The notes under the pieces are model-generated. The model was given only the letters and a program-made list of their open reading frames with translations. It had not been told where the DNA came from and did no database searches. 64,000 bases of DNA, taken from contig CBDCXV010000011.1 of assembly GCA_965223905.1 (NCBI GenBank), positions 1,472,001 through 1,536,000 on the forward strand, read 5' to 3'. Shown in pieces: positions 17,597 through 54,216 of the stretch. Made by a program: the position numbers and the translations under genes. The DNA comes from Candidatus Latescibacterota bacterium. GTDB taxonomy: Bacteria > Latescibacterota > UBA2968 > UBA8231. Numbering within the stretch: the stretch's first letter is position 1; each line of letters starts with the position of its first letter.

Positions 17597-17616
17597 ACAC
17601 GGAACGGAGACCCGAC

Positions 17617-18447: not shown

Positions 18448-18510
18448 AGCCCCTCCCGCAGGCGCAGGGCAGGCGAATCGACCGATTTCCCAAGACAGGA
18501 AAGGAGCCCC

Positions 18511-19773: not shown

Positions 19774-19877
19774 GGTGTCGAGGGTCGCAGAGCCCACGAG
19801 CCGGCGCCAGATCGAACGGGTGGAACCGCGGGGGGCAGTCGAAGCCTGATCCATTCCCGGTAGCTCCCGGGGGCGGT

Positions 19878-19911
19878 TTACGCTATTGAGTATTTTTACT
19901 CAGTAGTGTAA
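19878..19911. promoter_or_regulatory. AT-rich imperfect palindrome, putative operator of the defence operon
   Basis: TTACGCTATTGAGTA-TTTT-TACTCAGTAGTGTAA; arms match at 13/15 positions, perfect core TGAGTA-N4-TACTCA; ends 10 bp before ATG 19922. Confidence 0.55.
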
Positions 19912-19921
19912 TTTCCCGGGC

Positions 19922-21199
19922 ATGGAGCCCTTCCAACGCCCCCAGGTCGACACGCTCGTCGAGCGCCTGGCCGAGCCCGCCCGCCACATCATCGCCCTCT
20001 TCGGGCCGCGCCAGACCGGCAAGACCACCATCGCCCGCCAGGCCCTGGGCCGGATCGACCTCGAAAGCCGCTACCTCGCGGTCGACGAGCCCGAGGTCCC
20101 CGGACTCCCCGCCCCGCACGATGAGGATGCGGCCACCTTCCGGTTGCACCCGGAGCGGGACTCGAAATGGCTGGTGCGCCAGTGGGACGCGGCCCGAGAG
20201 CAAGCGGGACGATCCCCGCGCGGGTCCGTGCTGGTCCTCGACGAGATCCAGAAGATCGAGGGGTGGTCGGAGACCGTGAAGGGGCTGTGGGACGCCGACC
20301 GCGCCCGGGACTGCCCCCTGCGCGTGGTCATCCTGGGCTCGGCTCCGCTGCTCATGCAGTCGGGGCTGAGCGAGAGCCTCGCCGGCCGCTTCGAGACCAT
20401 CCGCGTCACCCACTGGTCCTTCGCCGAGATGTCCGCGGCCTTCGGCTTCGACCTGCCGAAGTACCTCTACTTCGGAGGCTGGCCGGGGGCGGCGCCCCTC
20501 GTCCGGAACCCCGACCGGTGGCGCGGCTACATCCTCGGTGCCCTCGTGGAGCCGAACATCGAGCGCGACCTCCTGGCCATGACCCCGGTGAAAAAGCCGG
20601 CCCTGCTCAAGCGGCTTCTCGAGCTGGGCGCCGACTGCTCCGGGCAAATCCTTGCTTACAACAAGATGCTGGGCGAGCTCCAGGACGCCGGGAACACGAC
20701 CACCCTGGCGCGCTATCTCGACCTGCTCGCAAGCGCCGGCCTGCTCGCCGGCCTGCAGAAGCACACCGGCAGCCCCGCTTCGAGGCGGGCTTCCAGTCCC
20801 AAGCTCAACGTGCTGAACACCGCCCTGATGACGGCCGGCTCGGGGTACTCATTCGATGAAGCGCAGGCCGACCGCACCTTCTGGGGCCGCATCGTCGAGA
20901 GCGCCGTGGGCGCGCACCTGTTCAACACCGCCGAATCCGATATGCGCCTCCTCTACTGGCGGGAGGGGTCGAACGAGGTCGACTTCGTGCTGAAACGGGG
21001 GAACCGCGTGGTCGCCGTCGAGGTGAAGAGCGGCGAGGAGCGGAAGCCCACGCGAGGCCGGAGGCCGTTGCCGGGGATGGCTGCCTTCGAGGGGCGCTTC
21101 GGTCCCTGCGGCCGTCTGCTTGTCGGGGTGGACGGGGTTCCGCTCAACGAGTTCCTCACGGCACCCGCCGGTGAATGGTTCGAGGAAGCATGGGGGTGA
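19922..21199 (+). CDS. AAA_14 ATPase with DUF4143 / PD-(D/E)xK C-terminus
   Basis: GPRQTGKTT, LVLDEIQ, ILGS, ESLAGRF, GGWP, ESAV, YWR..EVDFVL..VEVKSG. Confidence 0.88.
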   Translation: MEPFQRPQVDTLVERLAEPARHIIALFGPRQTGKTTIARQALGRIDLESRYLAVDEPEVPGLPAPHDEDAATFRLHPERDSKWLVRQWDAAREQAGRSPRGSVLVLDEIQKIEGWSETVKGLWDADRARDCPLRVVILGSAPLLMQSGLSESLAGRFETIRVTHWSFAEMSAAFGFDLPKYLYFGGWPGAAPLVRNPDRWRGYILGALVEPNIERDLLAMTPVKKPALLKRLLELGADCSGQILAYNKMLGELQDAGNTTTLARYLDLLASAGLLAGLQKHTGSPASRRASSPKLNVLNTALMTAGSGYSFDEAQADRTFWGRIVESAVGAHLFNTAESDMRLLYWREGSNEVDFVLKRGNRVVAVEVKSGEERKPTRGRRPLPGMAAFEGRFGPCGRLLVGVDGVPLNEFLTAPAGEWFEEAWG

Positions 21200-24100
21200 T
21201 CGTCTCCCGCACCTGCACCGAGATCCCGGACGGGGACGGGGATCGGCATCACCGCGAGGAACGGCAGTCCCGCCCTTTGAAGGAGTACCGGGATACGCCG
21301 GCCTACGTGCTGGTAGGCGATCCCGGCGCCGGAAAGACGACTGCCTTCGAGATGGAGTGCGAGGCACTGGGGGAGGAGGCCCATTGCCTGATCACCGCCG
21401 ATAATTTCCTGAGCTACGACGTGAGTACTCTTCCATCCGAATGGCGGGAGAAGACGTTGTTCATCGATGGACTGGATGAAGTCAGGGCAGGCGCACAAGG
21501 AGCGAGCGAGTTCAGGGAGATCCGGAAGCTTCTGCGCGCGCTGGGCAAGCCGCGCTTCCGGCTGTCGTGCCGGGAGGCGGACTGGCTGGGGGAGAATGAC
21601 CGGCAGCACCTGGAATCCGTGTCGCCGGACTCCCAGGTGAAGGTGCTGCGCCTCGATCCCCTGACGGATGCGGACATCGCCTCGATCCTGGAGGGCCGGC
21701 GGGATCTCGCAGGTGGCCGTGAGTTCATCAAGGAGGCGCGAGAGCGGGGTGTCGAAGGGCTGTTGACGAACCCGCAGACCCTGAGAATGCTGGCCGATGT
21801 CGTCGGCGGGGGAGGCGGGTGGCCGGAGAACCGCATGGAGACCTTCGAGAAGGCTTGCCGGCAGATGGTCCGCGAACACAACGAGGAGCGTCAGTCGGCG
21901 GAAGAGTGGAGAAGACCACCTGCTCCCAACCAGCTTCTCGATGCTGCGGGACATCTCTGCGCAGTTCAACTGATCTCGGGCGGGGCTGGGTACACCTTGC
22001 GCGGCGAGCCGGACGAAGAGTACCCCGCTCTGGACCAGTGCGACTATAACCGCCAAGCGCTCCGGTTCGCACTCGCCACGAAGCTGTTCAAGAGCGCCTC
22101 CAGCAACCGCTTCACGCCCGTTCACCGCCACGTCGCCGAGTTCCTCGGAGCCCGGCACTTGGCCGGGGTCATCGAGGACGGGCTCCCGGCCCGCCGGGTC
22201 ATCGCCCTGATGGTGGGGGAGGACGGCGGCGTGGTCACGGAGATGAGGGGACTTTCCGCCTGGCTCGCGGCCCATTCCAGGGACGCCCGGACGGACCTCA
22301 TCGAACGCGACCCCATCGGCGTCGGGCTGTACGGAGACATCGGGGAGTTCACTGACTACGAGAAACGGACGCTGCTGGAATCCCTGAACCGAGAGGGAGA
22401 GCGGCTTGGTTCGGTCCGGTGGACGGCTGGGGCCTTCGGCGCCCTCGCTGCGCCGGATATGGAACCGGTGCTGAGGGAAGTTCTGGAAGACGAGGACCGC
22501 GGCGCGGACCACCAGACGTTCACCGACTTTGTCTTGTGTGCCTTGCAGGAAGGGGCGCCTCTGCCAGGGCTCAGTGCACTGCTGATCGAAATCGTCCGCG
22601 ACGAGACGAGGTGGCCTCGCGTCAATACTTCCGCCCTCAATGCCTTCATCCACAACTGCCCGGACAGCGAGGACAGAACAGGCGAGCTCAGGGGGCTGCT
22701 AGCTGAAATTCAAAGCGGCTGCCCCTCGGACCCGGACGACGAACTTCTCGGAATCCTGCTCGCAAAGCTCTATCCGCGGGATCTCCCGCCCTCGGAGGTG
22801 TGGGATTTCTACGGCAGGGGAAAACCGAATTTTTTCGGAAGCTACTACTACTTCTGGGAAATAGACCTGGTCCAGAACTCCTCGAATGAGCAGGTGGCCG
22901 AACTCCTCGACCATCTGACCAAGCGGCTTCCCGAACCGGTTTCCTCTCCAGAGGTTCTCCCAGTGTATCTCCTGGCTCGCGGCCTGAAAGCGCACGGAGA
23001 CCAACTGGATCCTGCGCGCCTGTACAACTGGCTCGACGTGGGCTGCCGGAAAAAGGCCATCGGTGGAAACGCAACTGGAGCATTTGCTTTCCCCAGACGC
23101 GACGAAAGTATTAACCAGATCCGCTCCTGGCTGGAAGAGCGACCCGAAATCCAGAAAGCCGTCATCCTGGAGGGGGTTACCCACTGTCCCAATGAATTCA
23201 ACCTCGCTGCATTTCGGCATCAGCACCTGCACCTGTCCAGCCTGCCGCCAGACTTCGGCCTCTGGTGCCTGGAGCAGGCGGTCTCCATGGCCGACGCCAA
23301 GCCGTTGGTTGCAGAGCACCTGTTGAAATGGGCATTAGGGGCGCATCGGGATCATGTAGGGGATGCGGGTCTGTCACTCGAAGTCCTGAAAGAACGGACA
23401 CAGGAGAAGGCGAGGTTGAAGGACCGGCTGGATCAACTACTGTCACCTTCGCCCATTCTCAAGGAGCACCTGCAATACGAGGAAGAAGGACGCCGGCAAC
23501 AGGAGGAGGAACAGCAGCAGTGGCTCGACCATGTCCGGTCCAACAAGACAGAACTACTCGAGAACCGGGCGGCGCCGGCGCTGCTCCACCATATTGCCAC
23601 GCTGAATCTCCAGGGGCCGCAGACCCTTGAAAAAAGCCTCGCTAGCGAGCGGGACATGATCGATGCGGCCCTCCACGGCCTCCGGAACTCGATCCACCGG
23701 GAGGATGTCCCGGCCTTGGAGGAAATCCTGCGCCTCAGGGAGCAGAACAGGTTGCACTATCTCGGCGAGCCGTTCCTGGCTGGAATCGAGGAAGCCGCCA
23801 AGACGACGGACGTATCCCGATGGGACGCCGGCCTTGTCAGCCGGGCGATAGCGTTCCACTGCAACTGGCCCCTCTTGAACCGGAGCTGCAGATGGTATGA
23901 GCGGCTCCTGTCCGAGCGTCCCGAGATGGTTGCTCAGGTGCTGGTGAAATCCGCGGTCTCCGGGTTCCGCAGTGGCCGCGAGCACATCGACATGATCTCC
24001 AAACTCGCGCATGACAAAGGCCATGCCCAGGTGGCTCGGCACGCGAGCCTGCCTCTGCTGCGCGCCTTTCCGACGCGCTGCAGGTCGCAGCAGATCGAGG

Positions 24101-25314
24101 CGCTCGACCACCTGCTCAAGGCTGCCATTCAACATGCGGATCGGAGGTCCCTTCAGGGATTGATCGACACGAAGCTGTCACGGAAGAGCATGGACGACGC
24201 CCAGCGCGTGTACTGGCTGGCGGCCGGGGTCATCGTTTCTCCAGAGGTGTACGCGCCTCTGTTGAAAGAATTTTCAGAGGGGCGAGAGGGGCGGATCCGG
24301 CGTCTGACGGCCTTTTTCTCTTACCCGGGTTCCGTGAGATCCGTTGCCGATAAACTGCAAAGTCCAGCGCTGCAACTCCTCATCGGTCTGGCGGGAAGCA
24401 CCGTGGGGCCGGATGAGCAGTGGAACGAAAAGGTGACCTACTTCACTCCTGCAATGGAGGCTTCCCGGTTTGCTGGTGACCTGATTCAGCGTCTCGCCGC
24501 CTGTCCGGCCAAGGAAGCCAGCGATGCGCTGGCCAGGCTTCTCGAGGACGAGTCCCTATCGCAGTGGCGCGACGTGCTGTCGCGGGCACAGGATGAGCAA
24601 CGGGTGATCCGCCGTGACGCCGGCTATCGCCACCCCGATATCGCCCAGATCTGCAAGACGTTGAACGGTGGAATCCCCGCCAACGCCGCGGATCTCTCAG
24701 CTCTCTTGATGGACTTGCTCCAGGGGCCACCTGAGTGCCCTCGGTGCCCACGCGGACGAGCCGAGGCGCATGCACAAGGCTCTGTTCGAGGTGTGCCGCT
24801 CGCCCTGCAGATCCGGAGCGGCAATACCGACGGCTGGCGTCAGTACTGGAATGTAGATTCGAACGGGAGCCCCACGGGACCGAGGCACGAGGACGTGTGC
24901 CGCGACGCCCTGCTCTCCGCCCTGCGACACCAACTCCCCCAAGGGGTCGACGCCCAGCCCGAGGGGCAGTACGCCAACGATAACCGCGCCGACATACGGG
25001 TTTCCTTCCGGTGCTTCCAGGTGCCGGTGGAAATCAAGAAGAACATGAACTGCAAGAGCAGGCACCGCGACTTATGGAGCGCGATGCGAAACCAGTTGAT
25101 CGCCAAGTACACCACCGACCCGGACACTGACGGATACGGCATCTACCTTGTATTCTGGTTCGGCAAGGAACACACCCCGCCGCCGCCCTCCGGCCGCCCC
25201 CCGGCCGGCCCCGAAGAACTGAGAGAGAGGCTGGCATCGGAAGCAAATCTGTCGCCCGTCGAAGCGCGGAAGATCTCGGTCTGCGTAGTCGACGTAAGTC
25301 GACCGGATGAATAA
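21190..25314 (+). CDS. STAND/NACHT-like NTPase with long helical region and C-terminal PD-(D/E)xK-like nuclease
   Basis: GDPGAGKT, LFIDGLDE, LSCR, NPQTLRML, FTPVHRHVAEFLGA; C-terminal HEDVCRD..PEGQY..RADI..VPVEIKK..QL..KY; start overlaps the upstream stop. Confidence 0.8.
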   Translation: MGVIVSRTCTEIPDGDGDRHHREERQSRPLKEYRDTPAYVLVGDPGAGKTTAFEMECEALGEEAHCLITADNFLSYDVSTLPSEWREKTLFIDGLDEVRAGAQGASEFREIRKLLRALGKPRFRLSCREADWLGENDRQHLESVSPDSQVKVLRLDPLTDADIASILEGRRDLAGGREFIKEARERGVEGLLTNPQTLRMLADVVGGGGGWPENRMETFEKACRQMVREHNEERQSAEEWRRPPAPNQLLDAAGHLCAVQLISGGAGYTLRGEPDEEYPALDQCDYNRQALRFALATKLFKSASSNRFTPVHRHVAEFLGARHLAGVIEDGLPARRVIALMVGEDGGVVTEMRGLSAWLAAHSRDARTDLIERDPIGVGLYGDIGEFTDYEKRTLLESLNREGERLGSVRWTAGAFGALAAPDMEPVLREVLEDEDRGADHQTFTDFVLCALQEGAPLPGLSALLIEIVRDETRWPRVNTSALNAFIHNCPDSEDRTGELRGLLAEIQSGCPSDPDDELLGILLAKLYPRDLPPSEVWDFYGRGKPNFFGSYYYFWEIDLVQNSSNEQVAELLDHLTKRLPEPVSSPEVLPVYLLARGLKAHGDQLDPARLYNWLDVGCRKKAIGGNATGAFAFPRRDESINQIRSWLEERPEIQKAVILEGVTHCPNEFNLAAFRHQHLHLSSLPPDFGLWCLEQAVSMADAKPLVAEHLLKWALGAHRDHVGDAGLSLEVLKERTQEKARLKDRLDQLLSPSPILKEHLQYEEEGRRQQEEEQQQWLDHVRSNKTELLENRAAPALLHHIATLNLQGPQTLEKSLASERDMIDAALHGLRNSIHREDVPALEEILRLREQNRLHYLGEPFLAGIEEAAKTTDVSRWDAGLVSRAIAFHCNWPLLNRSCRWYERLLSERPEMVAQVLVKSAVSGFRSGREHIDMISKLAHDKGHAQVARHASLPLLRAFPTRCRSQQIEALDHLLKAAIQHADRRSLQGLIDTKLSRKSMDDAQRVYWLAAGVIVSPEVYAPLLKEFSEGREGRIRRLTAFFSYPGSVRSVADKLQSPALQLLIGLAGSTVGPDEQWNEKVTYFTPAMEASRFAGDLIQRLAACPAKEASDALARLLEDESLSQWRDVLSRAQDEQRVIRRDAGYRHPDIAQICKTLNGGIPANAADLSALLMDLLQGPPECPRCPRGRAEAHAQGSVRGVPLALQIRSGNTDGWRQYWNVDSNGSPTGPRHEDVCRDALLSALRHQLPQGVDAQPEGQYANDNRADIRVSFRCFQVPVEIKKNMNCKSRHRDLWSAMRNQLIAKYTTDPDTDGYGIYLVFWFGKEHTPPPPSGRPPAGPEELRERLASEANLSPVEARKISVCVVDVSRPDE

Positions 25315-25320
25315 GCGAGT

Positions 25321-28300
25321 ATGACCGGCCAACTCTTCACCCATTACTTCCTCACCGACGGCATAAAGGCCACCCCCGAGTGGCAGGCCTCGGCTGACCC
25401 GGAGGCCTTCGCCGCCTTCCGGGAGGCAGTGCTCCAGCGGTACGAGACCCTCAGCCGTTCCGCGGACCCCAACGAAGCCGCCACCGAGCAGGACCTGATC
25501 CGGCCGATCCTCGAGCTGCTCGGGTGGACCGACTACCTGCCGCAGCAGGGCACGGCCGGCAAGGAGGACATTCCAGACAACCTCCTTTTCGCCGACGCCG
25601 GCTCCAAGGAGCGCGCCACCGCGGAGCGCAACCCAGGTGGCCGCGCCCGATACGCGATCGCCGTCGAGGAGAGCAAGCGCTTCGGCCTGTCCCTGGACGA
25701 GCGCGACAGGGAGGCCGGCTTCCACGCCAGGTCCCCCCACAGCCAGATCCTCCGCTACCTGGCCACAGCTGAAATCGAGTCCGAGAGCCGGGTCCGCTGG
25801 GGCATCCTCACCAACGGCCGGGTCTGGCGCCTGTACGACTACCGCGCCCGTCCCCGCGCCAGCGGCTACTTCGAGGCCGACCTCGCCGACCTGCTTAATC
25901 CCGACAAGGAAGCGGATCTGCGCGTCTTCCACCTGCTCTTCCGCCGCGGCTCCTTCACGCCGCAGGAGGGAGCCGCGGCCTCCTTCCTCGAAGCCGCGCT
26001 CGCCGAGGGCCGCCGTTACGAGCAACATGTCGCCCAGGATCTTTCGGGTGTGGTGTTCGAAAGCGTCTTCCCGCGGCTCGTCCAGGCGCTCGCGGATGCC
26101 TCCCCGGCCAGCCTCCCCGAGGTCCACAAGGCCGCCCTGATCTTTCTCTACCGTCTGCTTTTCGTACTCTACGCCGAGGATCGGGGCCTGCTGCCGGTCA
26201 ACGACTCCCGCTACGACGACTACGGCCTTCGCAAGCGCGTGCGGGATGACATAGCCCGCAGGATGGCTGAAGGGGACACCTATTCCGCGCTGGCCACCAA
26301 CTACTACGACCGCCTCCAAAATCTCTTTCGGATCATCGACCGGGGAGACCCGTCCATCGGCCTGCCCCCTTACAACGGGGGGCTGTTCGCGTCGCAAGCC
26401 GCGCCCCTGCTGGAAACGGTCCGCCTCCCCGACGCCGAAGTCGCCCCGGTTATTTACGACCTCAGCCACGCCAGGGACGCAGAAGGCGAGCGCCGCTTCG
26501 TCAACTACCGCGACATGTCGGTGCAGCAGCTCGGCTCGATCTACGAGCGCCTGCTCGAACGCGAGCCGGTACGCGAAAACGGGGGCATCGCCATCCGCCC
26601 CAACCCGTACGCCCGCAAGGACAGCGGCAGCTTCTTCACCCCTCAGGAGCTGGTCGACCTCATCGTCGAACGCACCCTCAAGCCGCTGGCGGAAGAGCGT
26701 CTCAAAGCTTTCAAAGAGAAGGCTGCCGCACTCAAGAGCGACCGCCGGCCCAAGGACCAACGGCTAACCGAGCTGCTCAGGCTCGACCCGGCCGAGGCAG
26801 TCCTGAACCTCAAGGTCCTGGACCCGGCCATGGGCAGCGGCCACTTCCTGGTCACGGCGGTGGACTTCCTGTCCGACTACGTCGCCGAGCTGATCGAGAA
26901 GGTCGCCGCAGTCCCGGAGTGGCTCGACGGCGGGTACGCTTCGCCGCTGGTCGGGCGCGTGGCCGCGATCCGCAACGAGATCATCCGGCGTGCGGAAGAA
27001 TCGAACTGGGTCCTCGACCAAGCCCAGCTCACCGACCAGGCCATCATCCGCCGCATGGTCCTCAAGCGCTGCATCTACGGCGTGGACAAGAATCCCCTGA
27101 CCGTCGAGCTGGCCAAGGTGTCGCTGTGGCTGCACAGCTTCACCGTGGGCGCCCCGCTCTCCTTCCTCGACCATCACCTGCGTTGCGGCGACTCGCTGGT
27201 CGGCATGCGGGTAGCAGAGGCGGTGCGGGACCTGAACCGGTTGGGCGGGCTGTTTGCCCAAAGCGCCATCCAGGGCGCGGAGACCGCAACCGAAGGAATG
27301 CGGCTCATCGAGGAGATGTCCGACTCCGACGTGGCCGAGGTGCAGGAGTCGGCGGAGCTGTTCAGCGGGGTGGAGCGGACCACCGCGGACCTGCGCGGCC
27401 TGCTCGACATCCTCTGCGGCTGGCGCTGGCTCACGGCCGGCATGAAGAAGAAGGAGCGCGCGGCCTTCGAGGGACCGCTGGATCTGACGCTCGGCCGGCA
27501 CCAGGCAGACGCGTACAAGCTGTTGGCCCGCGGGCCGGAGTTTTTTGGCGACGATTCGCCCCAGTCCGGGGAGTGGCCGCGGTTCGTCGAGTGCTGGAAC
27601 GAGGCCCGCGCCATCGCCGACCGGGAGGGCTTCCTGCACTGGGAGGTCGCCTTTCCGGGGGTGTGGCGCCAGTGGCAGGACAGCCGCCCGCAGGGAGGGT
27701 TCGACGCCGTCATCGGCAATCCGCCGTGGGACCGCATCAAGTTGCAGGAAGTGGAGTGGTTCGCGACCCGTGATCCGGAGCTCGCCCTGGCGCCAACCGC
27801 GGCGGCAAGGCGAAAGGGCATTCAGCGGCTGCGCGACCAGGGATCGCCCCTGGCGTCCGCGTTCGACAAGGCCAAGGAGCAGTCGGAGGGCTTAGCCCGC
27901 ATGGTCAGATCCTGCGGCGACTACCCCTTGCTTGGAGGCGGCGACGTCAACCTGTACTCGCTGTTCGTCGAGCGGGCCACCGCCCTGATCAGGCCGGACG
28001 GCTTCGTCGGTTTGCTGACTCCTTCGGGCATTTACGCCGACAAGACCGCGGCCCCCTTCTTCAAGTCCGTTTCCACCGGCGGGCGGGTGGGCGGCCTGTT
28101 CGACTTCGAGAACAAGAAAATCTTTTTCAAGGACGTTCATGCCTCTTTCAAGTTCTGCGCTCTCATCTTCGGCGGCGAGGACCGGCACTTCGACCGGACC
28201 GAATGCGCCTTCTTCCTGCACGACACGAGAACACTCGCCGACGAGAACCGCTGCTTTCCGCTGGCCCCGGACGACTTCGTTCGGGTGAACCCGAATACCG

Positions 28301-29352
28301 GAACGGCGCCCGTGTTCCGCAGACGCCGGGACGCCGAGATCACCCGCCGCATCTACGAGCGGCATCCGGTGCTGGTGGACCGCTCCGGGGGTGAGGAGGT
28401 CCGGGCGTGGCCGGTGAAGTACGTGCGCATGTTCGACATGACCAACGACTCCCATCATTTCAAGACCGCCGCCCAGCTTGACGCGGAGGGCTTCTACCCA
28501 GTGCAGGGCAACCGCTGGAAACGGGGGTTGGAACTGTATCTGCCCCTATATGAGGGGAAAATGGTACAACCCTTCGATCACCGCGCCGCCAGCGTGGTGA
28601 TAAACCCGGAGAACCTGAACCGGCCCGCGCAGCCACAGGCAGCTACCAGCGAAGAACTGGCCGACCCGGATTGGGTCCCCAATCCTCAGTTCTGGGTCCC
28701 CAAGAAACCAGGGGAATGGCCCGAAACCTTGGGGTGGACCGTGACCTTTAAAAATGTCACAGCCGTGACGAACGTTCGAACTATGATCACATGTATAGCA
28801 CCGCGCGCCGGTTACGGTAACAGTCTGCCAATCCTGTTTCCAATCGCTCCCGACAAGACAGAGGAATACAAGGAGGGGTCATATCTCCTGGCTGCGAACA
28901 TGAGCGCATACGCTTTCGATTTTGTAACGCGGCAAAAGGTTCAGGGACAGAATTTGAATTGGTTCATTATCGAGCAACTCCCCGTAATCGCCCCCGCCGA
29001 TTACGACCGCCAATTCGGCGCCACCACCGCCCGCGATCTCGTCAAGGACCACGTCCTTCGCCTCACCTACACCTCCCACGACATGGCCCCCTTCGCCCGC
29101 GACCTCGGGTACGACGGACCACCCTTCTCTTGGGACGAGGAGGAACGCCGCCACCTCCGCGCCCGCCTCGACGCCCTCTACTTCCACCTCTACGGCCTCA
29201 CCCGGGAAGATGCGGGGTACGTGCTCGACACCTTCCCGATTGTCCGCCGTGAAGACAAGGTCGCTTTTGGGCGGTACCGCACCCGCGACCTGATCCTGGC
29301 CTACATGAACGCCCTGGCCGCCGGCGACACGGATTCGGTGGTGGCGGTGTAG
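25321..29352 (+). CDS. Type IIG restriction-modification enzyme (Eco57I-like fused REase/MTase/TRD)
   Basis: NEAATEQDLI..PD..EESK nuclease, LTNG, YNGGLF, GSFFTP, VLDPAMGSGHFL, YGVDKN, IGNPPW. Confidence 0.9.
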   Translation: MTGQLFTHYFLTDGIKATPEWQASADPEAFAAFREAVLQRYETLSRSADPNEAATEQDLIRPILELLGWTDYLPQQGTAGKEDIPDNLLFADAGSKERATAERNPGGRARYAIAVEESKRFGLSLDERDREAGFHARSPHSQILRYLATAEIESESRVRWGILTNGRVWRLYDYRARPRASGYFEADLADLLNPDKEADLRVFHLLFRRGSFTPQEGAAASFLEAALAEGRRYEQHVAQDLSGVVFESVFPRLVQALADASPASLPEVHKAALIFLYRLLFVLYAEDRGLLPVNDSRYDDYGLRKRVRDDIARRMAEGDTYSALATNYYDRLQNLFRIIDRGDPSIGLPPYNGGLFASQAAPLLETVRLPDAEVAPVIYDLSHARDAEGERRFVNYRDMSVQQLGSIYERLLEREPVRENGGIAIRPNPYARKDSGSFFTPQELVDLIVERTLKPLAEERLKAFKEKAAALKSDRRPKDQRLTELLRLDPAEAVLNLKVLDPAMGSGHFLVTAVDFLSDYVAELIEKVAAVPEWLDGGYASPLVGRVAAIRNEIIRRAEESNWVLDQAQLTDQAIIRRMVLKRCIYGVDKNPLTVELAKVSLWLHSFTVGAPLSFLDHHLRCGDSLVGMRVAEAVRDLNRLGGLFAQSAIQGAETATEGMRLIEEMSDSDVAEVQESAELFSGVERTTADLRGLLDILCGWRWLTAGMKKKERAAFEGPLDLTLGRHQADAYKLLARGPEFFGDDSPQSGEWPRFVECWNEARAIADREGFLHWEVAFPGVWRQWQDSRPQGGFDAVIGNPPWDRIKLQEVEWFATRDPELALAPTAAARRKGIQRLRDQGSPLASAFDKAKEQSEGLARMVRSCGDYPLLGGGDVNLYSLFVERATALIRPDGFVGLLTPSGIYADKTAAPFFKSVSTGGRVGGLFDFENKKIFFKDVHASFKFCALIFGGEDRHFDRTECAFFLHDTRTLADENRCFPLAPDDFVRVNPNTGTAPVFRRRRDAEITRRIYERHPVLVDRSGGEEVRAWPVKYVRMFDMTNDSHHFKTAAQLDAEGFYPVQGNRWKRGLELYLPLYEGKMVQPFDHRAASVVINPENLNRPAQPQAATSEELADPDWVPNPQFWVPKKPGEWPETLGWTVTFKNVTAVTNVRTMITCIAPRAGYGNSLPILFPIAPDKTEEYKEGSYLLAANMSAYAFDFVTRQKVQGQNLNWFIIEQLPVIAPADYDRQFGATTARDLVKDHVLRLTYTSHDMAPFARDLGYDGPPFSWDEEERRHLRARLDALYFHLYGLTREDAGYVLDTFPIVRREDKVAFGRYRTRDLILAYMNALAAGDTDSVVAV

Positions 29353-29499
29353 ATGGGCACTGTTGTGAGGACCGCGGCCACTTGGGATCCAGACCGCCTT
29401 GGCCGAAACGGTTCGACCCGACCAAGCCGTTTGGCGGCAGTTCCGTCGTAGAATCTCGGGCTCGCAAGGAAACATCGGACTCCTAACGGAGTGCACAGG

Positions 29500-32400
29500 A
29501 TGACGGAACAACGAAACGACGAATTCCCCGACCAGCCCTTCCTCAACCGTGTTCGTGATGCGCTCTGGCGTCGTCCGGGTCAAGCGTCCGTGATGATCGG
29601 CAGCGGGTTCTCCCGGAATGCCAGAAAGAGCCGGCCCGATGTCGGGGACATGCCCTTGTGGTCCGATCTGGCGGAGGCACTATCCAAGAGCCTCTCGACC
29701 TCAGGAGATAAACCGGCGTGCGAGGTCGATGCCCTGGAACTTGCGCAGGAGTACGAGCAGGCCTTCGGACGGGCGCGTCTCCACCAGTTCCTCAACGAGT
29801 CGGTGCGCGACGAGGATTTCAGCCCGGGCGAGCCACACCGCAGGCTGTTGAAGCTGCCGTGGAGAGATGTCTTTACCACCAACTGGGACACCCTGTTGGA
29901 ACGTTGCCTTCCGATGCCTGAGCGGGCGTACTCCCTGGTGACCTCGGCGGATCACCTGCCACTGCGCGCGCCTCCCCGCATCGTCAAATTGCACGGGTCC
30001 TTCCCAGGGACCTTCCCTCTGATCGTCACCAAGGACGACTATAGGAAATTTCCGAGGGTTTTTGCTCCCTTCGTGAACACCGTGCAGCAGGCGATGATGG
30101 AGACGGTCTTCCTTTTGCTCGGTTTCTCGGGCGAGGATCCGAACTTCCGGCGTTGGCTGCGCTGGGTCAGAGAGAACCTTGATGAAGCCGCCCCGAGGAT
30201 CTATTGGGCCGGATGGCTGAAGCTGGACGAGTCTGCCCGGGCGAAGTTGATGAAGAAAAACGTCGTTCCGATCGATCTTGCCCGGCATCCGAGAGCAGGC
30301 ATCTGGCCCGAGCCCCTGAAGCACGTGAAGGCGTTGGAATGGGTTCTCCGGTCCTTGGAGCATGGCCGGCCCTATCCACCGGAAGACTGGCCGAGCCATG
30401 TTGCGCCCAGCCGTCCTAGTGTGCTGGCGGACCTCGAGCCTGTGGAGCGGGTTCTGGTCAGGCACCCCAGGGAGGAACCCTCGGAAAAACCGCCGGGAGA
30501 GCCACACGAACCTGCGTATCTGGAGGAAATCAGAGCCCTCCTGCATGTCTGGCGTCACAATCGGAAGTGCTATCCATCCTGGCTGGTCATGCCCTCCGAC
30601 GCGGCGCAGGAAGTTCGTGCATACACGGATCACTGGCAGCCACTCATCCTTGCTGCGTTGCCGCACCTTGCCGGCGGCCCCGAGCGTCTTGGCGCTCTCA
30701 GTGAGCTGGTCTGGCGGCGTGAGGCGGCACTCGATCCGCTCTTCAAGGATCTCGAGGAGGCCGTTGGCGGTGTTCTCGAGGAGATCGACTGCGAGCGTCG
30801 TTTGGTCGGCGGCGAGGTGCCGGGGGATCTGGATTGGGGCCGTGTTCGGCGTCAGTGGCGGACGCTGGCAGCGGCTCTCGTGACGGAGGCCCGATTCGCC
30901 TACGATCGCCCGAAGTTCATGCACTGGATCGAGCAGTTGGCACCGTTCAAGGAGGAAGACGAAGACCTCGTCGAGCGAGTACAGCATGAGAAATGTCTGT
31001 GGGCGTTGAATCAGCAGGACTATGAGAAACTTGAGGGGCTGGTTGGAGAATGGCACCCGCAAGCCTCGGATCCCGTTTGGCTGTTGCGGAAAGCCGCACT
31101 CCTGGCAGAATTGGGCCGTACCGATGACGCAAGGGAACGCGCCCTCGGCGTGCTGGAGACGGTGCGGAGGTGGCCTGACGGTCCGGAGAGTCTGGCCGGC
31201 GTCTCAAGGGAGGCATGGGCCCGGCGGCTCGCCCACGTGACCGACGAGGATAGAAAGGACACGATCTCGAGTTTGCGGGTGTTGGAATCGAGGTACCGCG
31301 AGTTGGCGCAATATCGATGCGACCCGACAGCTGAGTTACAAGCCCACGAGCGGGCAGTCTTGGGCAGCCCTCCGGTCGAGAAGCAAAGGCCGTTCGATCT
31401 CGGCAGGAGGACCGCCGAGGGTTTGAGCTTCAGCAACGTGGCCAATCATCGGGCTCTGGCGGCCCTGCGCGCGATCCGGTTCGTCGAGGTCGTCGGATCG
31501 CCGAGTTTCGTCAGCGGTGACCTCCTGGGCCGTGCGGCGGAAGCGCTCCTACCCTACAGCCCGGAATGGGCCTCCGCCCTTACCGTCCGCTGCGCGGACG
31601 GTGGCGCTGATCGGCGGTTCTCGAGGACCCTGTCGCGTTGGCGGATCGCATTCATGAAGCCGGAGTTGGCCCGGTCTTTGGCGGAATCCCAGCGCCGTAC
31701 GATCGAGTTCGCACTCGAGCAAGTGGAACGCAGCACCGGTGCGGTTCAAACCTGGTGGCTCTGGAGCCAACGCCTGGAGGCGGCGATGGAGGCGTTGTCC
31801 CGGTTTGTTCTTCGCTTGAAACCCGAAGAAGTGGAGAGGGTGCTGCAGTTGGCGCAGTCCCTTTACCGCAATCCCCGGATCCACTCGCGCATTCAGTATT
31901 CCGAGCCCTTGGGCAATCTCCTGCGCAGGTCATGGGAGGCCCTTCCCGGTTCCCTCCAAGCGCAACATGCACTGGACCTTCTCCGCCTGCCCATCGTCGG
32001 TGTCGACGGATTTACTGTTGACATGGAGAACCACTTCAGGGATCCCGGTTACATCATCGACGCCGCAAATTCGGTACGGGACTGCCCTGCCCCCGACCGG
32101 TCCGAGGCCAATGAAAGTGCCTGGGTCGAAGTTGTTCGCCTCCTCGACAAAGGACTGGGTACCGAGGGCACGGCGCGAAAGCGGGCGGCGGTCAGGCTGG
32201 CCGTTCTGTCGCGTTGGCAGTGGTTGACGTCGGACGAGCGGCAGCGGCTTGCACGCGCGCTCTGGGACTTTGGCTTGGATTGCGATGGTCTGCCGAGGGA
32301 TGCGGACCTGCACCCGTGGGTGTTTCTGAAACTGCCGGAGCCGGAGCCTGGGCTGGCGGAAAATCGGCTTCGCGCCGCGTGGGTAAAATCCGCGAACTGG

Positions 32401-33318
32401 GAGGACGAGAGTAGGGAGTCGCTGGAGAAGGTCCTTGCCGGCGCGGGGACTGCCCTGAGCAACCTGCCAGCACGCGGACACGAGATCACGCTCACTAATG
32501 CCGAGGTCGATTCACTCCTGGCAGCGGTTGATCGCTGGGCAGCGATGGGACCCTCGACGATTCTTCCATGGAACCGCCCCCATATGTTGCAGGAGTGGCG
32601 CAGCACCTTGAGGAACGTCGCGGCGTTGTTACTGGAGTTGGAAGTGAGCCCCACGACGGCACAGACATTGCTCGACACCGTGCGGAAGCTGGGCACTGAA
32701 AAAACGCCAGCATACGAGTTGGTGCCTGGCATTGTGAAGTCCGATCATGGCCTGGCCACCTCCGCCTCCGCCCTGCTGCGGGTCGGGCTCGGGGGTTCGA
32801 CGCCTGAACAAAGTGAACAAGCAGCGAGCGCGTGGGGAGGTCTGTATTGGTGGCTTCGGGCTTCGGCCTTGGAAGATTCCGGTCTACCACGGGCACCTGA
32901 CCACTTGGTATTTGAGATGGGCGAAATCATCGCGGCCCCCAGGTGGTTTGTTCTCTCCCAGGCTCTTGAGATTGCGGCATGGGTGTTCGAAGAGGGAATC
33001 GAGGAACACCGCGAGTTGCTGCGGCCACCCGTCCTTTCCGGTCTCGACTTTCTCCGGCGGGCCCTTGTCTTTCGGGAGATTTCACCGAATCCCTTGGTCG
33101 AACAACCCCAGGTTAACGAAGATGATGTCGACGTGCCTTTGCTTCGTTGGCGCTGTGTCCGACTGGCAAAGGCCATGGACTCTGCCGGATTCGGAGGCGA
33201 GACGGCTGTCGCAGGTTGGCTGAAGAACGCGGAGATGGATCCATTGCCGGAGGTGCGCCTCACGGTGGCAGACTGGGGCGACGGCCGGGTTTCGAAAAAC
33301 GCTCCGGATTCAGAGTGA
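29500..33318 (+). CDS. SIR2-domain defence protein (Dsr1-like sirtuin)
   Basis: IGSGFS, TTNWDTLLE, IVKLHGS, LGFSGEDPNF, then about 1000 aa of helical repeats; no Walker A seen. Confidence 0.85.
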   Translation: MTEQRNDEFPDQPFLNRVRDALWRRPGQASVMIGSGFSRNARKSRPDVGDMPLWSDLAEALSKSLSTSGDKPACEVDALELAQEYEQAFGRARLHQFLNESVRDEDFSPGEPHRRLLKLPWRDVFTTNWDTLLERCLPMPERAYSLVTSADHLPLRAPPRIVKLHGSFPGTFPLIVTKDDYRKFPRVFAPFVNTVQQAMMETVFLLLGFSGEDPNFRRWLRWVRENLDEAAPRIYWAGWLKLDESARAKLMKKNVVPIDLARHPRAGIWPEPLKHVKALEWVLRSLEHGRPYPPEDWPSHVAPSRPSVLADLEPVERVLVRHPREEPSEKPPGEPHEPAYLEEIRALLHVWRHNRKCYPSWLVMPSDAAQEVRAYTDHWQPLILAALPHLAGGPERLGALSELVWRREAALDPLFKDLEEAVGGVLEEIDCERRLVGGEVPGDLDWGRVRRQWRTLAAALVTEARFAYDRPKFMHWIEQLAPFKEEDEDLVERVQHEKCLWALNQQDYEKLEGLVGEWHPQASDPVWLLRKAALLAELGRTDDARERALGVLETVRRWPDGPESLAGVSREAWARRLAHVTDEDRKDTISSLRVLESRYRELAQYRCDPTAELQAHERAVLGSPPVEKQRPFDLGRRTAEGLSFSNVANHRALAALRAIRFVEVVGSPSFVSGDLLGRAAEALLPYSPEWASALTVRCADGGADRRFSRTLSRWRIAFMKPELARSLAESQRRTIEFALEQVERSTGAVQTWWLWSQRLEAAMEALSRFVLRLKPEEVERVLQLAQSLYRNPRIHSRIQYSEPLGNLLRRSWEALPGSLQAQHALDLLRLPIVGVDGFTVDMENHFRDPGYIIDAANSVRDCPAPDRSEANESAWVEVVRLLDKGLGTEGTARKRAAVRLAVLSRWQWLTSDERQRLARALWDFGLDCDGLPRDADLHPWVFLKLPEPEPGLAENRLRAAWVKSANWEDESRESLEKVLAGAGTALSNLPARGHEITLTNAEVDSLLAAVDRWAAMGPSTILPWNRPHMLQEWRSTLRNVAALLLELEVSPTTAQTLLDTVRKLGTEKTPAYELVPGIVKSDHGLATSASALLRVGLGGSTPEQSEQAASAWGGLYWWLRASALEDSGLPRAPDHLVFEMGEIIAAPRWFVLSQALEIAAWVFEEGIEEHRELLRPPVLSGLDFLRRALVFREISPNPLVEQPQVNEDDVDVPLLRWRCVRLAKAMDSAGFGGETAVAGWLKNAEMDPLPEVRLTVADWGDGRVSKNAPDSE

Positions 33319-33404
33319 GTAAACGAGTCGACGGGACTGGGATTGGACTGCCGGTTTCACGGACAGCTTCCTTTATCGAGAACCCCTTGGCTCGGGCTGT
33401 ATGC

Positions 33405-33834
33405 CTTCATGGACAACGCCTGAAATTGGTTCGTGGTTAAACAGGTCCCTGTGCTGAGGGCAGAGAAGTACGACCCCCGATTCGGCGCTACCACCGCCCG
33501 CGCCCTCTGCAAGGACGTCCTCCGACTCACCTACACCGCCAACGACATGGCCCCCTTGGCCCACGACCTCGGGTACGCCCGCCCGCCCTTCTGGTGGGTG
33601 GAGAAGGAACGCGCCACCTCCCCCCACGCCCCGACGCCCTCTACTTCTTCCTCCACGGCTTCACCCGGGAAGACGCGGACTACGTGCTCGCCACCTTCCC
33701 GATCATCCACTGCTAAGACGAGGCCGCCTTCGGACGCACCCCACCCGCTCGCTGATTCTGGCTACATGAACGCCCTTGCAGCCGGCGATACGGAGACGTT
33801 GGTAGCCGTGAAAACCGGAAAGGTGCGAGGATAA
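33405..33834 (+). pseudogene. Frameshifted second copy of a type IIG R-M 3' end
   Basis: HGQRL/WFVVKQVPV..FGATTAR..VLRLTYT..DMAP.A.DLGY..YMNALAAGDTETLVAV parallels 28941-29352 (QGQNLNWFIIEQLPV..FGATTAR..YMNALAAGDTDSVVAV). Confidence 0.85.
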
Positions 33835-33912
33835 CATTTGGGGTTGACAGGGTCTTGCTGATCAGACACCATATGGAATGCCAAGCGATCCAAATACTGA
33901 TGGAGTTGGTGA

Positions 33913-34188
33913 ATGGATATTGGATTTGTATGGGATAAAGGCAAGTACCAAGAAGTTCAAGACAAACACCAAGTCCGGTTTTATGAGGCAGTATCCGCAT
34001 TTGATGATTCGAGGGGGTGCGAAATCGCTGATCCAGCAGGCCATGAAGATCGATGGATGTGGATTGGGGCAACTTTCAGCGGTCGCGTATTAGCTCTCGT
34101 TTACTCGGAAGAGAATTTACCGCTCTATCGGTTTATCACGGCATTTGATGCAAAAGGCAGATTCCTCGATGAGTACAAAAGAATTTGA
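33913..34188 (+). CDS. brnT: BrnT family toxin
   Basis: 91 aa; FVWDKGK...KHQVRFYEA..FDD..EDRWMWIG..VLALVYS...RFITA; GGAG RBS. Confidence 0.75.
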   Translation: MDIGFVWDKGKYQEVQDKHQVRFYEAVSAFDDSRGCEIADPAGHEDRWMWIGATFSGRVLALVYSEENLPLYRFITAFDAKGRFLDEYKRI

Positions 34189-35602
34189 CTACCAGGCTTT
34201 CATGAATAGCTCTCCCGGCCTTGGTGAAATCCATCGTGGGCCTAAGGCGCGGGACCAACGACGAACAGCCTCCGAAGGGCGGATTTCTCAGTGTGAGGAA
34301 TTGAAAGGGGTTTTCCAGATAATCCAGGAAATTACCAAAATCTCCGCCACCGGTGACTACATCTACCGAGGAGAACCTAAGCACTATAGCAAGGTGTCGT
34401 CGAGTCTCTATCGCGAATGGTCGGAGATTGATAAAGATATCAATGTGGTAGCTGTCCAAAATGAAATTCTGAAAGAAGCAAAGAGATTTGTTTACGATAA
34501 TGATGAACTGGAAATCCTGACCCAACTCCAACACTACGGAGGAGCAACCAACCTGATAGACTTTACTACCGACTACCTTGTAGCCATGTTCTTTGCCTGC
34601 GATGGCTCCGATCTCCTAAACCAAAATGGTAGAATCATTTTGCTTGAGAAAAGCAGCGAGATCAACAAACAGCTTGAAATCCCTCGCAATCCCAGGAATC
34701 GTGTCATGGCTCAGAAAAGTATTTTTGTTCGGCCACATCGCGGATTTATTGAACCAGATCATGTCGTTAATATTCCGAAAGCTCTTAAAACCCCCATCCT
34801 AAACTACTTGTGGAAATGCCACGACCTATCTACTGCTGCCATATACAACGATCTTCACGGCTTTATCAAATTCCAGAAGATTCATCATCGTTCGCATTCC
34901 AAGTATTTCTCTGGGCTTCTATGTCAAAAAAAAGAGGCTTATCGCAAAGCCATTGAACATTATACGGAGGCAATTAAACTGAATCCTAGGTTAATTGATG
35001 CTTATTGTAATCGCGGAGCTGCCTATAGCAACGAAGGCGTGTACCACCTTGCCATTGAGGACTACAACAAAGCCATAGAACTGGACCCGGACGACGTAGA
35101 AATCTATTTCAATCGTGGCCTTGCTCAGACGGGCAACGGCGCTTTCGACCTTGCTATTGAGGACTACAACAAAGCCGCAGAACTAGACCCGAATGACGTG
35201 GAAATATATGTTAGTCGCGGTCTGGCTCAGATAGGCAAAGGTGCATATGATCTTGCTGTTGAAGACTACAACAAAGCCATAGAACTGAACCCAGACGATT
35301 CCAGGATCTATTTCAATCGAGGCAACGCTCACCTAAAGCAAGGTGAGTATGATCACGCTGTCCAAGACTACAACAAAGCCATAGAACTGAACCCTAATGA
35401 CGCCAAAGCTTATTTTAACCGCGGAGTAATTTGGCTGTCCAGGAAAAATTGGCCACGGGCCCAATCAGACCTGACTGCTGCCAAGAACCTTGGCATTGAT
35501 ATTCTCTCGGCATTTCGTAACGACTACCAAAACGTCGAGGGATTTCAGCAACAATTAGGAGTTCGGCTGCCTGAAGATATCGTGGCAATGCTGACGTCAT
35601 AG
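34169..35602 (+). CDS. FRG domain + TPR protein with a BrnA-like N-terminal extension
   Basis: ATG overlaps the brnT end by 20 nt; YIYRGE..SSSLYR, LQHYGGATNLIDFT..VAMFFAC, NRVMAQKSIF (FRG); five 34-aa TPR units. Confidence 0.85.
   Translation: MSTKEFDYQAFMNSSPGLGEIHRGPKARDQRRTASEGRISQCEELKGVFQIIQEITKISATGDYIYRGEPKHYSKVSSSLYREWSEIDKDINVVAVQNEILKEAKRFVYDNDELEILTQLQHYGGATNLIDFTTDYLVAMFFACDGSDLLNQNGRIILLEKSSEINKQLEIPRNPRNRVMAQKSIFVRPHRGFIEPDHVVNIPKALKTPILNYLWKCHDLSTAAIYNDLHGFIKFQKIHHRSHSKYFSGLLCQKKEAYRKAIEHYTEAIKLNPRLIDAYCNRGAAYSNEGVYHLAIEDYNKAIELDPDDVEIYFNRGLAQTGNGAFDLAIEDYNKAAELDPNDVEIYVSRGLAQIGKGAYDLAVEDYNKAIELNPDDSRIYFNRGNAHLKQGEYDHAVQDYNKAIELNPNDAKAYFNRGVIWLSRKNWPRAQSDLTAAKNLGIDILSAFRNDYQNVEGFQQQLGVRLPEDIVAMLTS
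34949..35460 (+). repeat. 102-bp coding tandem repeats (TPR units)
   Basis: GACTACAACAAAGCC(AT/GC)AGAACT recurs at a 102-bp period (units starting 35051, 35153, 35255, 35357). Confidence 0.85.
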
Positions 35603-35702
35603 CAAGTCGCTGCCGCACCGAGAGGCGGCGTCTTCAGTTCCCACCCCCACAGACATCCGTTGCCCTCTTTTGCAGGGACCTTGAAATTCCCGCTTACCTC
35701 GG

Positions 35703-35724
35703 ATGGGCTACACCCATTTTTTTC
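35703..35724 (+). terminator. Possible weak intrinsic terminator at the island end
   Basis: ATGGG-CTACA-CCCAT hairpin followed by a T run; the stem is short. Confidence 0.3.
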
Positions 35725-35797
35725 TCTACAGGGCGTGGGATCAGGCATCGGGGCACCCACCGACATTTCCTTCCGAAAGGACACCCCCGCTCCCAAC

Positions 35798-36445
35798 TCA
35801 GAAAACCAGCCGGGTATAATCCTCCCACTGGTGGAAGCCCAGGGTCGTAAGGTGTGCCGTCGAGGAGTGCTCCGGGTCTTCCAGTCCCCCGTTGTAGTTG
35901 TAGCGGCAGACCGCGAAGGACCACTCCGCCCCCGGGCTCGGGGCTGAATCGAGGCCGAACGCCTTCCAGGGAATGCGGATCTCCACCGCCCACCTGTCCT
36001 CGAGCCGCCAGACCCGCCGCAGCGTCCCGCTGGCCGGTGCGATCACCTCCTCCCAAGTAACCTCCCCCGCAGTGAAGCGGTCCCGGTCGGGAATGTGGAG
36101 GTCCATCAGGAAGCCGTTTGGAGTGATGTGGATCTCCCAATAGTCGCTGCGCTCCCCACCCGGCTTGACGAAGAACTCGGCGACGTCTCCGAGGGTCCAC
36201 ATCCGCTGGTTGTCCGCGGTCGCCTGCGAGAAGATGTCGCTGTCGGTGAAGCAGGTGTAAAAGCTCAGGCCGTCTTCGGCGGCACCGACGCAGGCGCTTC
36301 CCCTTTCGGCCGGAAAGACCTCCGGCCCATCCCAGTACCGGCGCAGCGGAAGAAGTGCCGATTCCCGGTATTTCTCGGGCTGCTCGACGCCGAAGTCTTC
36401 GACGTCCCCGGAAACCCGGGGACAGCGGATCGAAGGGGTTGCCAT
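35798..36445 (-). CDS. Carbohydrate-binding family 9-like (DOMON) protein
   Basis: DSDIFS..MWTLGDVAEFFV..YWEIHITPNG..WAVEIRIPW..WSFAVCRY; GGAG before ATG 36445. Confidence 0.8.
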   Translation of the reverse strand: MATPSIRCPRVSGDVEDFGVEQPEKYRESALLPLRRYWDGPEVFPAERGSACVGAAEDGLSFYTCFTDSDIFSQATADNQRMWTLGDVAEFFVKPGGERSDYWEIHITPNGFLMDLHIPDRDRFTAGEVTWEEVIAPASGTLRRVWRLEDRWAVEIRIPWKAFGLDSAPSPGAEWSFAVCRYNYNGGLEDPEHSSTAHLTTLGFHQWEDYTRLVF

Positions 36446-54038: not shown

Positions 54039-54216
54039 AGCGAGCGACCGTTCCGAAGGAGCAAGCGAGGCCATTGCTACAGGGTTCAATTGCGTCACCT
54101 TCATATCCATTTCCGGGTACGTAAACGGCGCCGACACCATGCGAAGTCGGGCGACATTTTGCGCACCGAACCGAGATACGATACGATACTTCGAGTTTGA
54201 ATCAGGAGTACCGGCT

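Follow-up and report, generated by a model that had tools for sequence, protein, structure and literature searches.

When six putative defence genes follow one another on a single strand of a bacterial contig, do they make up one machine or several? The question is raised by contig CBDCXV010000011.1 of a Candidatus Latescibacterota bacterium. The window analysed here, to which all positions refer, is a stretch of 64,000 nucleotides (nt), and its open reading frame (ORF) list places six genes between 19922 and 35602 (15.7 kb), every one on the + strand: an AAA_14-DUF4143 gene (g1), a NACHT-nuclease gene (g2), a type IIG restriction-modification (R-M) gene (g3), a Dsr2-like SIR2 gene (g4), a brnT gene and a gene for a protein with FRG and TPR domains (Table 1). 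The original prediction described this co-directional layout correctly and took g1, g2 and g3 as one unit, in which g2, a STAND (signal transduction ATPases with numerous domains) nuclease, or the SIR2 protein backs up or guards the R-M enzyme. The answer reached here is different. The stretch is likely to be a composite defence island of separable modules and not a three-gene machine, and g1 with g2 a two-gene variant of the Erebus/Avs10 system.

The g1-g2 gene pair

The g1 product scores 77.4 bits against Pfam AAA_14 and 93.7 bits against DUF4143, and matches the PADLOC model PDLC04791 (PDC-S01) over its full length (E 2.6e-155, 515 bits, positions 2-394 of 395). DUF4143 is listed among the PD-(D/E)XK superfamily (PMC3424549), and a second source describes PDC-S01 as an ATPase fused to a PD-(D/E)xK-superfamily domain that ranks fourth in frequency among prokaryotic defence candidates and still awaits validation (PMC12988326). 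Among the g1 proteins that partner g2 relatives, the Walker A residues G28..G33-K34-T35, the Walker B residues D107-E108 and the putative nuclease triad D354...E367-x-K369 are invariant in all 29 aligned sequences. An AlphaFold2 model of g1 reached a predicted local distance difference test (pLDDT) score of 70.8, and its Foldseek matches are generic AAA+ folds only (ORC, 2fna). From its domains and residues, g1 is read as an AAA+ ATPase-nuclease with intact catalytic motifs.

For g2 neither Pfam nor PADLOC returned a match. The NCBIfam model NF058535 (‘NACHT domain-containing antiphage protein EruA’) scores 893.7 bits, and HyoA matched weakly. In the genome search against the EruA profile the match fell into two parts, of 724.6 and 166.3 bits (profile positions 11-1158 and 1161-1318); the break between them is a short insertion of ~25 amino acids (aa) ahead of the nuclease domain. 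A bona fide plasmid EruA of 1336 aa, which at 1189.6 bits lies above the model's cut-off, has the length and layout of g2 and is ~28% identical to it. The nucleoside triphosphatase (NTPase) motifs of g2 are complete (Walker A GDPGAGKTT, Walker B LFIDGLDE), and in 24 full-length relatives the residues G48, G51, G53, K54, T55, D98, D101 and E102 are invariant, as is the candidate nuclease motif D1273...E1286-x-K1288.

The last 280 aa of g2 were modelled with a pLDDT of 85.3. This model most resembles restriction-enzyme folds, namely OkrAI (Z 7.4, root-mean-square deviation 3.6, 145 residues aligned), Can2 (Z 7.2) and BamHI (Z 7.1), followed by McrC, Card1, HamA and NucC, with Z values of 5-7.4 overall. 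These values are middling, so the nuclease call depends on fold and motif together. Foldseek gave nothing for the same model at E <= 0.001, its weak rows (E 0.02-0.2) being mostly nucleases, and a sequence search of solved chains with g2 gave nothing below E 0.087. The predicted fold and the conserved residues make g2 an EruA/Avs10-family NACHT protein with a C-terminal restriction-enzyme-fold domain, and the earlier label of STAND nuclease fits it well. In a 2026 Nature paper and its preprint, Avs10, which is equated with Erebus, Hypnos and bNACHT64, is reported to sense phage major capsid proteins (PMC13581612). The middle of g2 is the part that changes most. Compared with the syntenic island of the same-genus locus L090, g2 is 61% identical overall, against 87% for g1, 89% for the IIG gene and 93-97% for the flanks; residues 551-950 of g2 are 34-56% identical and the first 500 residues 64-90%. 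Deepest divergence at residues 551-950 is as expected for a phage-facing sensor.

The overlap of the g1 and g2 genes had been noticed in the original prediction, and its length depends on the start codon of g2. With ATG 21190, which is preceded by GAGGAAG, the product has 1374 aa and overlaps the g1 stop (TGA 21197-21199) by 10 nt; with ATG 21175 it has 1379 aa and the overlap is 25 nt. The gene call of the database copy, 1374 aa, fits the former.

How constant is this arrangement? A genome collection with one genome per species contained 455 loci encoding a g2 relative, of which the best 80 were analysed, covering more than 10 phyla by record titles. A g1 relative (54-80% identical) lies directly upstream of g2 in all 80, two of the g1 copies being partial, and stop and start codons overlap by 4 nt (ATGA) in 63/80 loci and by 1 nt in 4/80. 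In 168 genomes of the window's phylum, a sample that overlaps the genome-collection loci, all 34 places with a g1 match at >=67% identity abut a g2 match. The tie loosens with distance. Of 29 g1 homologues in the phylum at 51-59% identity, only one is within 2 kb of a g2-like gene, the two standing in a different order. Six places of this group were fetched; their g1 homologues stand alone, next to an HsdR gene of type I, or 1.7 kb downstream of a g2-like gene of 37% identity. A metagenome contig scan with the g1 alignment returned only relatives at 48-59% identity; a g2-like gene (28-46% identical) lies directly downstream in 8/80 of these loci, and where at least 1.5 kb of flank was available 7/44 have such a downstream gene and 36/44 lack g2. 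The eight metagenome partners indicate that the pairing is older than the close clade, yet not universal.

The two genes have also diverged in step. Pairwise identities of g1 and g2 correlate with r = 0.91 over 54 loci, and none of 999 Mantel permutations was as high; mean pairwise identity is 67% for g1 and 48% for g2, g1 being the more conserved. The surrounding genes vary from locus to locus. Among the non-IIG downstream neighbours, scanned as 100 of 114 cluster representatives (the IIG cluster, a single protein of 2,584 aa and the 13 shortest proteins were set aside), 17/100 match a PADLOC model (Avs2, PLD-helicase, QatC, AbiEi, HEC-01 and others). The pair sits in defence islands of varied make-up, with no R-M partner common to them, and a g1 tree at odds with taxonomy points to transfer between phyla. 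Together, g1 and g2 are one evolutionary unit. The pairing was not found in the literature on either family, though the original Erebus description (van den Berg et al. 2024) might mention a partner, and the terms DUF4143, AAA_14, Avs10, Erebus and PF13635 are all absent from the available supplements of PMC13581612. That an Erebus/Avs10-type receptor is obligately coupled to an ATPase-nuclease of the PDC-S01 type is something that we could not find in print.

The type IIG gene as an optional neighbour

By its domains and motifs g3 is classed as a type IIG enzyme. Eco57I scores 67.3 bits in Pfam, with MmeI_N, MmeI_hel and MmeI_Mtase below cut-off, and the PADLOC model REase_MTase_IIG matches residues 21-412 (E 3.5e-76). 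Methyltransferase motif I, VLDPAMGSGHFL, is found at 499 and motif IV, NPPW, at 805; no match was obtained among solved chains by sequence. A DISARM reading was considered and set aside: the DrmMI match is confined to residues 431-803, the methylase core, and DrmA, DrmB and DrmC are absent among the scanned island and flank ORFs.

The gene starts (ATG 25321) 6 nt after the g2 stop codon (TAA 25312-25314), exactly as first described. In the genome collection, a type IIG gene follows g2 in 9/80 loci, always co-directionally; seven copies are full-length, a contig end truncates another and the ninth is a fragment. The other 71 loci have none, and neither do 64 of the 71 loci with at least 3 kb of downstream flank. 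Seen from the restriction gene, the phylum holds 37 other places with a full-length IIG orthologue (69-90% identical), of which five lie within 1.4 kb of g2, at gaps of 10 (genome G103), 13 (G167), 76, 657 and 1351 nt; a sixth orthologue lies 3.1 kb from g2, and one genome has an IIG fragment there. Eight IIG loci away from g2 were fetched and all eight have other neighbours. In three of them a gene of 445-461 aa of unknown function and without a Pfam match stands 15 nt upstream of the IIG gene (L179:4697-6034, L184:5032-6369, L181:9656-11041), occupying the slot held by g1-g2 in the window.

On a g1 tree of 64 rows, which omits one IIG-positive locus, IIG adjacency needs five changes, and well-supported branches force at least four of these. 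With shuffled labels the mean is 8.6, and none of 500 shuffles was as low as five. IIG adjacency is therefore clustered, far above random placement, but has been gained or lost repeatedly. As a neighbour of g1-g2 the type IIG gene recurs, but it is optional. Of the co-occurrence that had been supposed for the three families, the g1-g2 part is obligate in the close loci and the IIG part holds as an above-random adjacency with an optional gene.

Cassettes, relics and borders of the island

Downstream of g3 the island bears marks of insertion. The Dsr2-like gene g4 (Pfam SIR2_2 76 bits; PADLOC Dsr2 E 3.3e-148, residues 15-1049; NCBIfam Dsr2 513 bits, cut-off 1400) is bracketed by imperfect direct repeats of ~350 nt that are 82-85% identical and lie 4461-4467 nt apart, start to start (repeat families D1-D4). 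The left repeat is the 3' end of g3 itself. The right repeat sits in a frameshifted 133-aa ORF that is a relic of an IIG C-terminus and not a gene, which the original prediction had missed: in BLASTP its two ends match g3, residues 1-59 to 1216-1275 and residues 111-126 to 1328-1343, while the part between them has lost the frame. Locus L094, from another genus, has the order g1-g2-IIG-relic-BrnT-FRG-TPR, with no Dsr2 gene between IIG and BrnT. The Dsr2-like gene is thus a stand-alone cassette inserted between direct repeats of the IIG 3' end. Compared with the solved Bacillus subtilis DSR2 chains, the SIR2 part of g4 alone matches (E 4e-5), and its last ~226 residues are left unmatched by the Dsr2 model, so that its trigger may differ from that of DSR2.

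Similar 3'-end relics were seen in other loci (L094:16406-16654, L182:3527-3652, L184:13897-14197, L006:17553-17813). Such relics have an intact IIG gene 0.8-4 kb upstream, and the defence-like cassettes between gene and relic differ: Dsr2 in the window, in L184 a protein with a ThiF domain, in L182 an unknown protein of 473 aa. It looks as though the IIG 3' end has repeatedly served as a recombination point through which cassettes were gained. In the same-genus locus L090, positions 17094-18679 between IIG and Dsr2 hold a gene with a CD-NTase-like nucleotidyltransferase domain and one with a Cap15 cyclic-dinucleotide-receptor domain, a CBASS-like pair that the window lacks.

The two last genes of the island form a separate conserved pair. 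BrnT scores 53.8 bits in Pfam (BrnT_toxin, cut-off 34.5) and the next protein 54.2 bits for FRG, with TPR families. The FRG-TPR ORF opens at TTG 34145 and its probable start, ATG 34169, gives a 20-nt overlap with the brnT stop. The antitoxin gene brnA normally follows brnT; no brnA was found after brnT in the window, in L094 or in L180, where the next gene has FRG and TPR domains only, and the BrnT and FRG-TPR pair recurs in both of these loci. Among 14 other BrnT orthologues in the phylum, ten have a TPR protein within 150 nt downstream, four of these with an FRG part, and five lie just 3' of an IIG orthologue (G102, G136, G139 and G146 are among the BrnT-TPR places). BrnT and the TPR protein could be an unusual toxin-sensor pair.

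Where does the island end? It is flanked by metabolic genes, with enolase-superfamily genes on either side, and the window is GC-rich, at 67-70% in the flanks, 62-65% across g2 and g4 and 49-52% across 33-36 kb. No integrase or transposase family occurs among the ORFs scanned across 19.9-36.8 kb, in agreement with the original prediction, and the window has no tRNA gene. No empty site was found in the same-genus genome G104. Orthologues of both island-flanking genes (94% and 95% identical) lie ~2 Mb apart there, so the island stands at a synteny break in that genome and its borders are not settable by this comparison. A promoter and terminator scan of 19500-36500 was uninformative, with four promoter-like sites where 2.1 were expected and 13 terminator-like sites where 14.7 were. 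In all four public runs, contigs at >=90% likeness are 10-100x deeper on 19.7-20.9 kb (g1) and 25.4-29.8 kb (IIG) than on g2 and Dsr2; this depth sums other organisms and merely hints at many near relatives of g1 and IIG in those communities. No contig from these runs spans 18400-37400.

Further defence-like genes lie elsewhere in the window. Upstream, 5.7 kb from the island, is the McrBC-type pair, which the same-genus genome has conserved, and the HEC-01-like genes near 53935-55968 stand in a low-GC stretch (51-57%, compared with ~69%).

Table 1. Features of the island, followed by other genes seen in the window
Feature	Position	Strand	Description
g1	19922-21199	+	AAA+ ATPase (AAA_14) fused to DUF4143 restriction-enzyme-fold domain; PADLOC candidate PDC-S01
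g2	21190-25314	+	Erebus (EruA)/Avs10-family NACHT NTPase, helical middle, predicted C-terminal PD-(D/E)xK nuclease domain; alternative ATG 21175
g3	25321-29352	+	Putative single-chain type IIG R-M: N-terminal nuclease, gamma-class N6-adenine methyltransferase, C-terminal region
Left direct repeat	29002-29349	+	3' end of g3; brackets Dsr2-like cassette
g4	29491-33318	+	Dsr2-like SIR2 protein: N-terminal SIR2 NADase domain and long C-terminal region; inserted cassette
IIG C-terminus relic, not a gene	33433-33834	+	133-aa ORF, frameshifted; contains right direct repeat 33469-33810
brnT	33913-34188	+	BrnT-family ribonuclease toxin gene
FRG-TPR gene	34169-35602	+	FRG and TPR repeat protein (PADLOC PDC-S15)
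NurA-like gene	1288-2699	-	With small helix-turn-helix gene; low-GC stretch at window start
Nucleotidyltransferase gene	8730-9632	+	Nucleotidyltransferase fused to HepT-like protein
McrBC-type pair	11342-14225	-	McrBC-family gene (171 bits) and AAA_5 GTPase/ATPase gene
Schlafen-type gene	49787-50971	+	Schlafen AlbA_2 and HATPase_c_4 protein; PADLOC pAgo-associated models matched weakly
HEC-01-like gene	53935-55968	+	AAA_21/AAA_15 ATPase (PADLOC HEC-01, 568.6 bits); adjoins DUF4276 protein (HEC-01 models)

One machine or several modules, and the known systems

How might such an island work? Module 1, g1 with g2, would be a two-gene variant of the Erebus/Avs10 NLR-like (nucleotide-binding leucine-rich repeat-like) system. 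In it g2 would be both switch and sensor, its fast-evolving helical middle most likely binding a phage structural protein, which by analogy with Avs10 would be the major capsid protein. Trigger binding would lead to NACHT-dependent assembly of g2, the C-terminal restriction-enzyme-fold nuclease would be released and the infection aborted. The g1 protein, probably co-translated with g2, may serve the same pathway, either as a co-effector directed at DNA or as a licensing partner. Module 2, g3, would be an autonomous single-chain type IIG R-M enzyme, here probably co-transcribed with g1-g2; module 3, g4, a Dsr2-like SIR2 NADase that arrived as a cassette between IIG 3'-end repeats; and module 4 the BrnT toxin with an FRG-TPR protein in the place expected for the antitoxin gene.

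Several observations weigh against this picture. The score of g2 is below the equivalog cut-off of NF058535 (1000 bits), and the capsid trigger is borrowed by analogy from Avs10 homologues at ~30% identity. The counts cover the best 80 of 455 loci, from overlapping samples of related loci that are not independent events, and the tie of g1 to g2 is known from genomes and not as a physical link. Six plasmid EruA-like genes, taken from 43 records with a match and ~25-33% identical to g2, have no nearby g1-like sequence by tblastn; since EruA homologues function unpaired, g1 might be dispensable. Finally, IIG adjacency is well above random, always co-directional and as tight as 6-13 nt in three genomes, which leaves room for some functional tie in this lineage. 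On a Paracoccus plasmid the EruA-like gene is followed at 105 nt by a gene annotated as DUF4143; the latter gave no tblastn match to g1, and the two are not counted as the same pair. Complex prediction of g1 with g2 residues 1-570, from alignments, gave 0.00 in two runs; controls were not folded, and the value says nothing either way.

Short gaps favour the proposal of a single functional unit of g1, g2 and the IIG gene in which the STAND nuclease or the SIR2 protein backs up or guards the R-M enzyme as PrrC is said to guard EcoprrI. Gaps of 6 nt in the window, 10 nt (G103) and 13 nt (G167) leave no room for an IIG promoter, and the nine co-directional occurrences after g2 come from at least three phylum-level lineages, far above random in genomes of 4-8 Mb. 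Set against this are the 71/80 pairs that do without IIG (64 of the 71 with sufficient flank), the 32/37 full-length phylum orthologues not within 1.4 kb of g2, the different neighbours of all eight fetched IIG loci and the remaining gaps of 76-1351 nt. Only 3/100 other downstream neighbours match an R-M family (methyltransferase), Dsr2 is a later insertion, and Erebus/Avs10 homologues are reported as direct sensors of capsid protein (PMC13581612). We regard the three-gene unit as very improbable. The part of it that stands is g1-g2, with its 80/80 and 34/34 adjacency and its ATGA overlap in 63/80 loci; IIG, with 9/80, 5/37 and at least 4-5 gains or losses, falls away. SIR2 as a back-up of restriction fares no better, the Dsr2-like gene being an insert between direct repeats that the otherwise matching island of L094 lacks. 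Nothing seen requires a guard relation of the PrrC-EcoprrI type, which keeps low odds for the lineages with g2-IIG gaps of 6-13 nt. For those lineages one can also picture a layered operon, with the IIG 3' end as an integrase-free docking site for cassettes (Dsr2, CBASS-like, BrnT-TPR): IIG would cut unmodified phage DNA, g1 would work on the resulting ends or on DNA bound by IIG, and g2 would kill the cell once capsid protein signals failed restriction. This we hold to be improbable.

Might g1 and g2 instead be two independent single-gene systems, PDC-S01 and Erebus, that share a defence island? PADLOC catalogues PDC-S01 as a single-gene candidate, according to PMC12988326, and the plasmid EruA-like genes without g1, the 28/29 phylum homologues of g1 at 51-59% identity that are not near g2 and the 36/44 metagenome loci without it agree with this. 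Same-strand adjacency in the same order at 80/80 and 34/34 places in many phyla, a conserved 4-nt overlap, correlated divergence and neighbours that change while the pair does not make independence of the close pair very hard to credit. A last alternative makes g1 a safety device, whose ATPase would either keep the g2 nuclease inactive before infection, in the manner of an antitoxin or chaperone, or reset g2 afterwards. An upstream, translationally coupled gene is what one commonly sees where a protein has to be present no later than its toxic partner, and g1 is the more conserved of the two (67% against 48%). An invariant restriction-enzyme-fold triad in 29/29 sequences would be needless for a pure inhibitor, and unpaired EruA homologues exist without such a safety, which renders this role unlikely, if worth bearing in mind. 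A composite island whose first module is a two-gene Erebus/Avs10 variant therefore stays the preferred reading.

If it is right, it bears on more than this contig. Erebus/Avs10 is treated as a one-protein receptor, and the cross-phylum g1-g2 clade suggests that some bacterial NLR-like receptors are two-component. The locked clade is also a concrete handle on the role of DUF4143 ATPase-nucleases, and the island shows how a restriction gene can anchor the build-up of cassettes, which is useful to predict defence genes such as the BrnT-TPR pairs.

The components resemble systems that have been described separately (Erebus/Avs10, PDC-S01, type IIG R-M, Dsr2, BrnT and PDC-S15), as the original prediction allowed they might, with the partner role of g1 as the part not accounted for. 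The PADLOC run that it proposed assigns g1 to PDC-S01, g3 to REase_MTase_IIG, g4 to Dsr2 and the FRG-TPR protein to PDC-S15, and leaves g2 over. PrrC-EcoprrI consists of an anticodon nuclease held silent by a type I R-M enzyme. The likeness lies in a suicide nuclease gene beside an R-M gene on the same strand; here the R-M linkage is optional rather than obligate, no type I R-M system is present, and the g2 family is reported to sense a phage protein itself (PMC13581612). With MmeI/Eco57I-type IIG enzymes g3 shares a predicted one-chain layout of N-terminal nuclease region, motifs I and IV and C-terminal region. It differs in its sub-cut-off MmeI-specific domains and in having no solved sequence relative; its orthologues usually stand without g1-g2, and relics of its 3' end are met again on the downstream side of inserted defence cassettes. 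The g4 protein shares with DSR2 the N-terminal SIR2 domain and a long C-terminal part, and departs from it in its unmatched end. The BrnT_toxin domain is common to the BrnT/BrnA system and to the island, where as in 10/14 phylum places an FRG-TPR or TPR-only protein replaces BrnA.

Closest to the main subject are the last two. With PDC-S01, g1 shares the AAA_14 and DUF4143 architecture (COG1373) and the full-length model match; PDC-S01 is a catalogued single-gene candidate (PMC12988326), whereas the g1 clade was never seen without g2 in the 80 collection loci or the 34 close phylum places. With Erebus/Avs10, g2 shares the order of NACHT P-loop, long helical region and C-terminal PD-(D/E)xK domain, and by analogy with Avs10 it would be a capsid-sensing, cell-killing NLR-like receptor. 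The Avs10 text and supplements searched make no mention of an upstream ATPase-nuclease gene coupled to the receptor (PMC13581612). The STAND genes of this kind were tested as single genes, whereas g2, as judged from genomic context, has a partner gene in 80/80 close loci.

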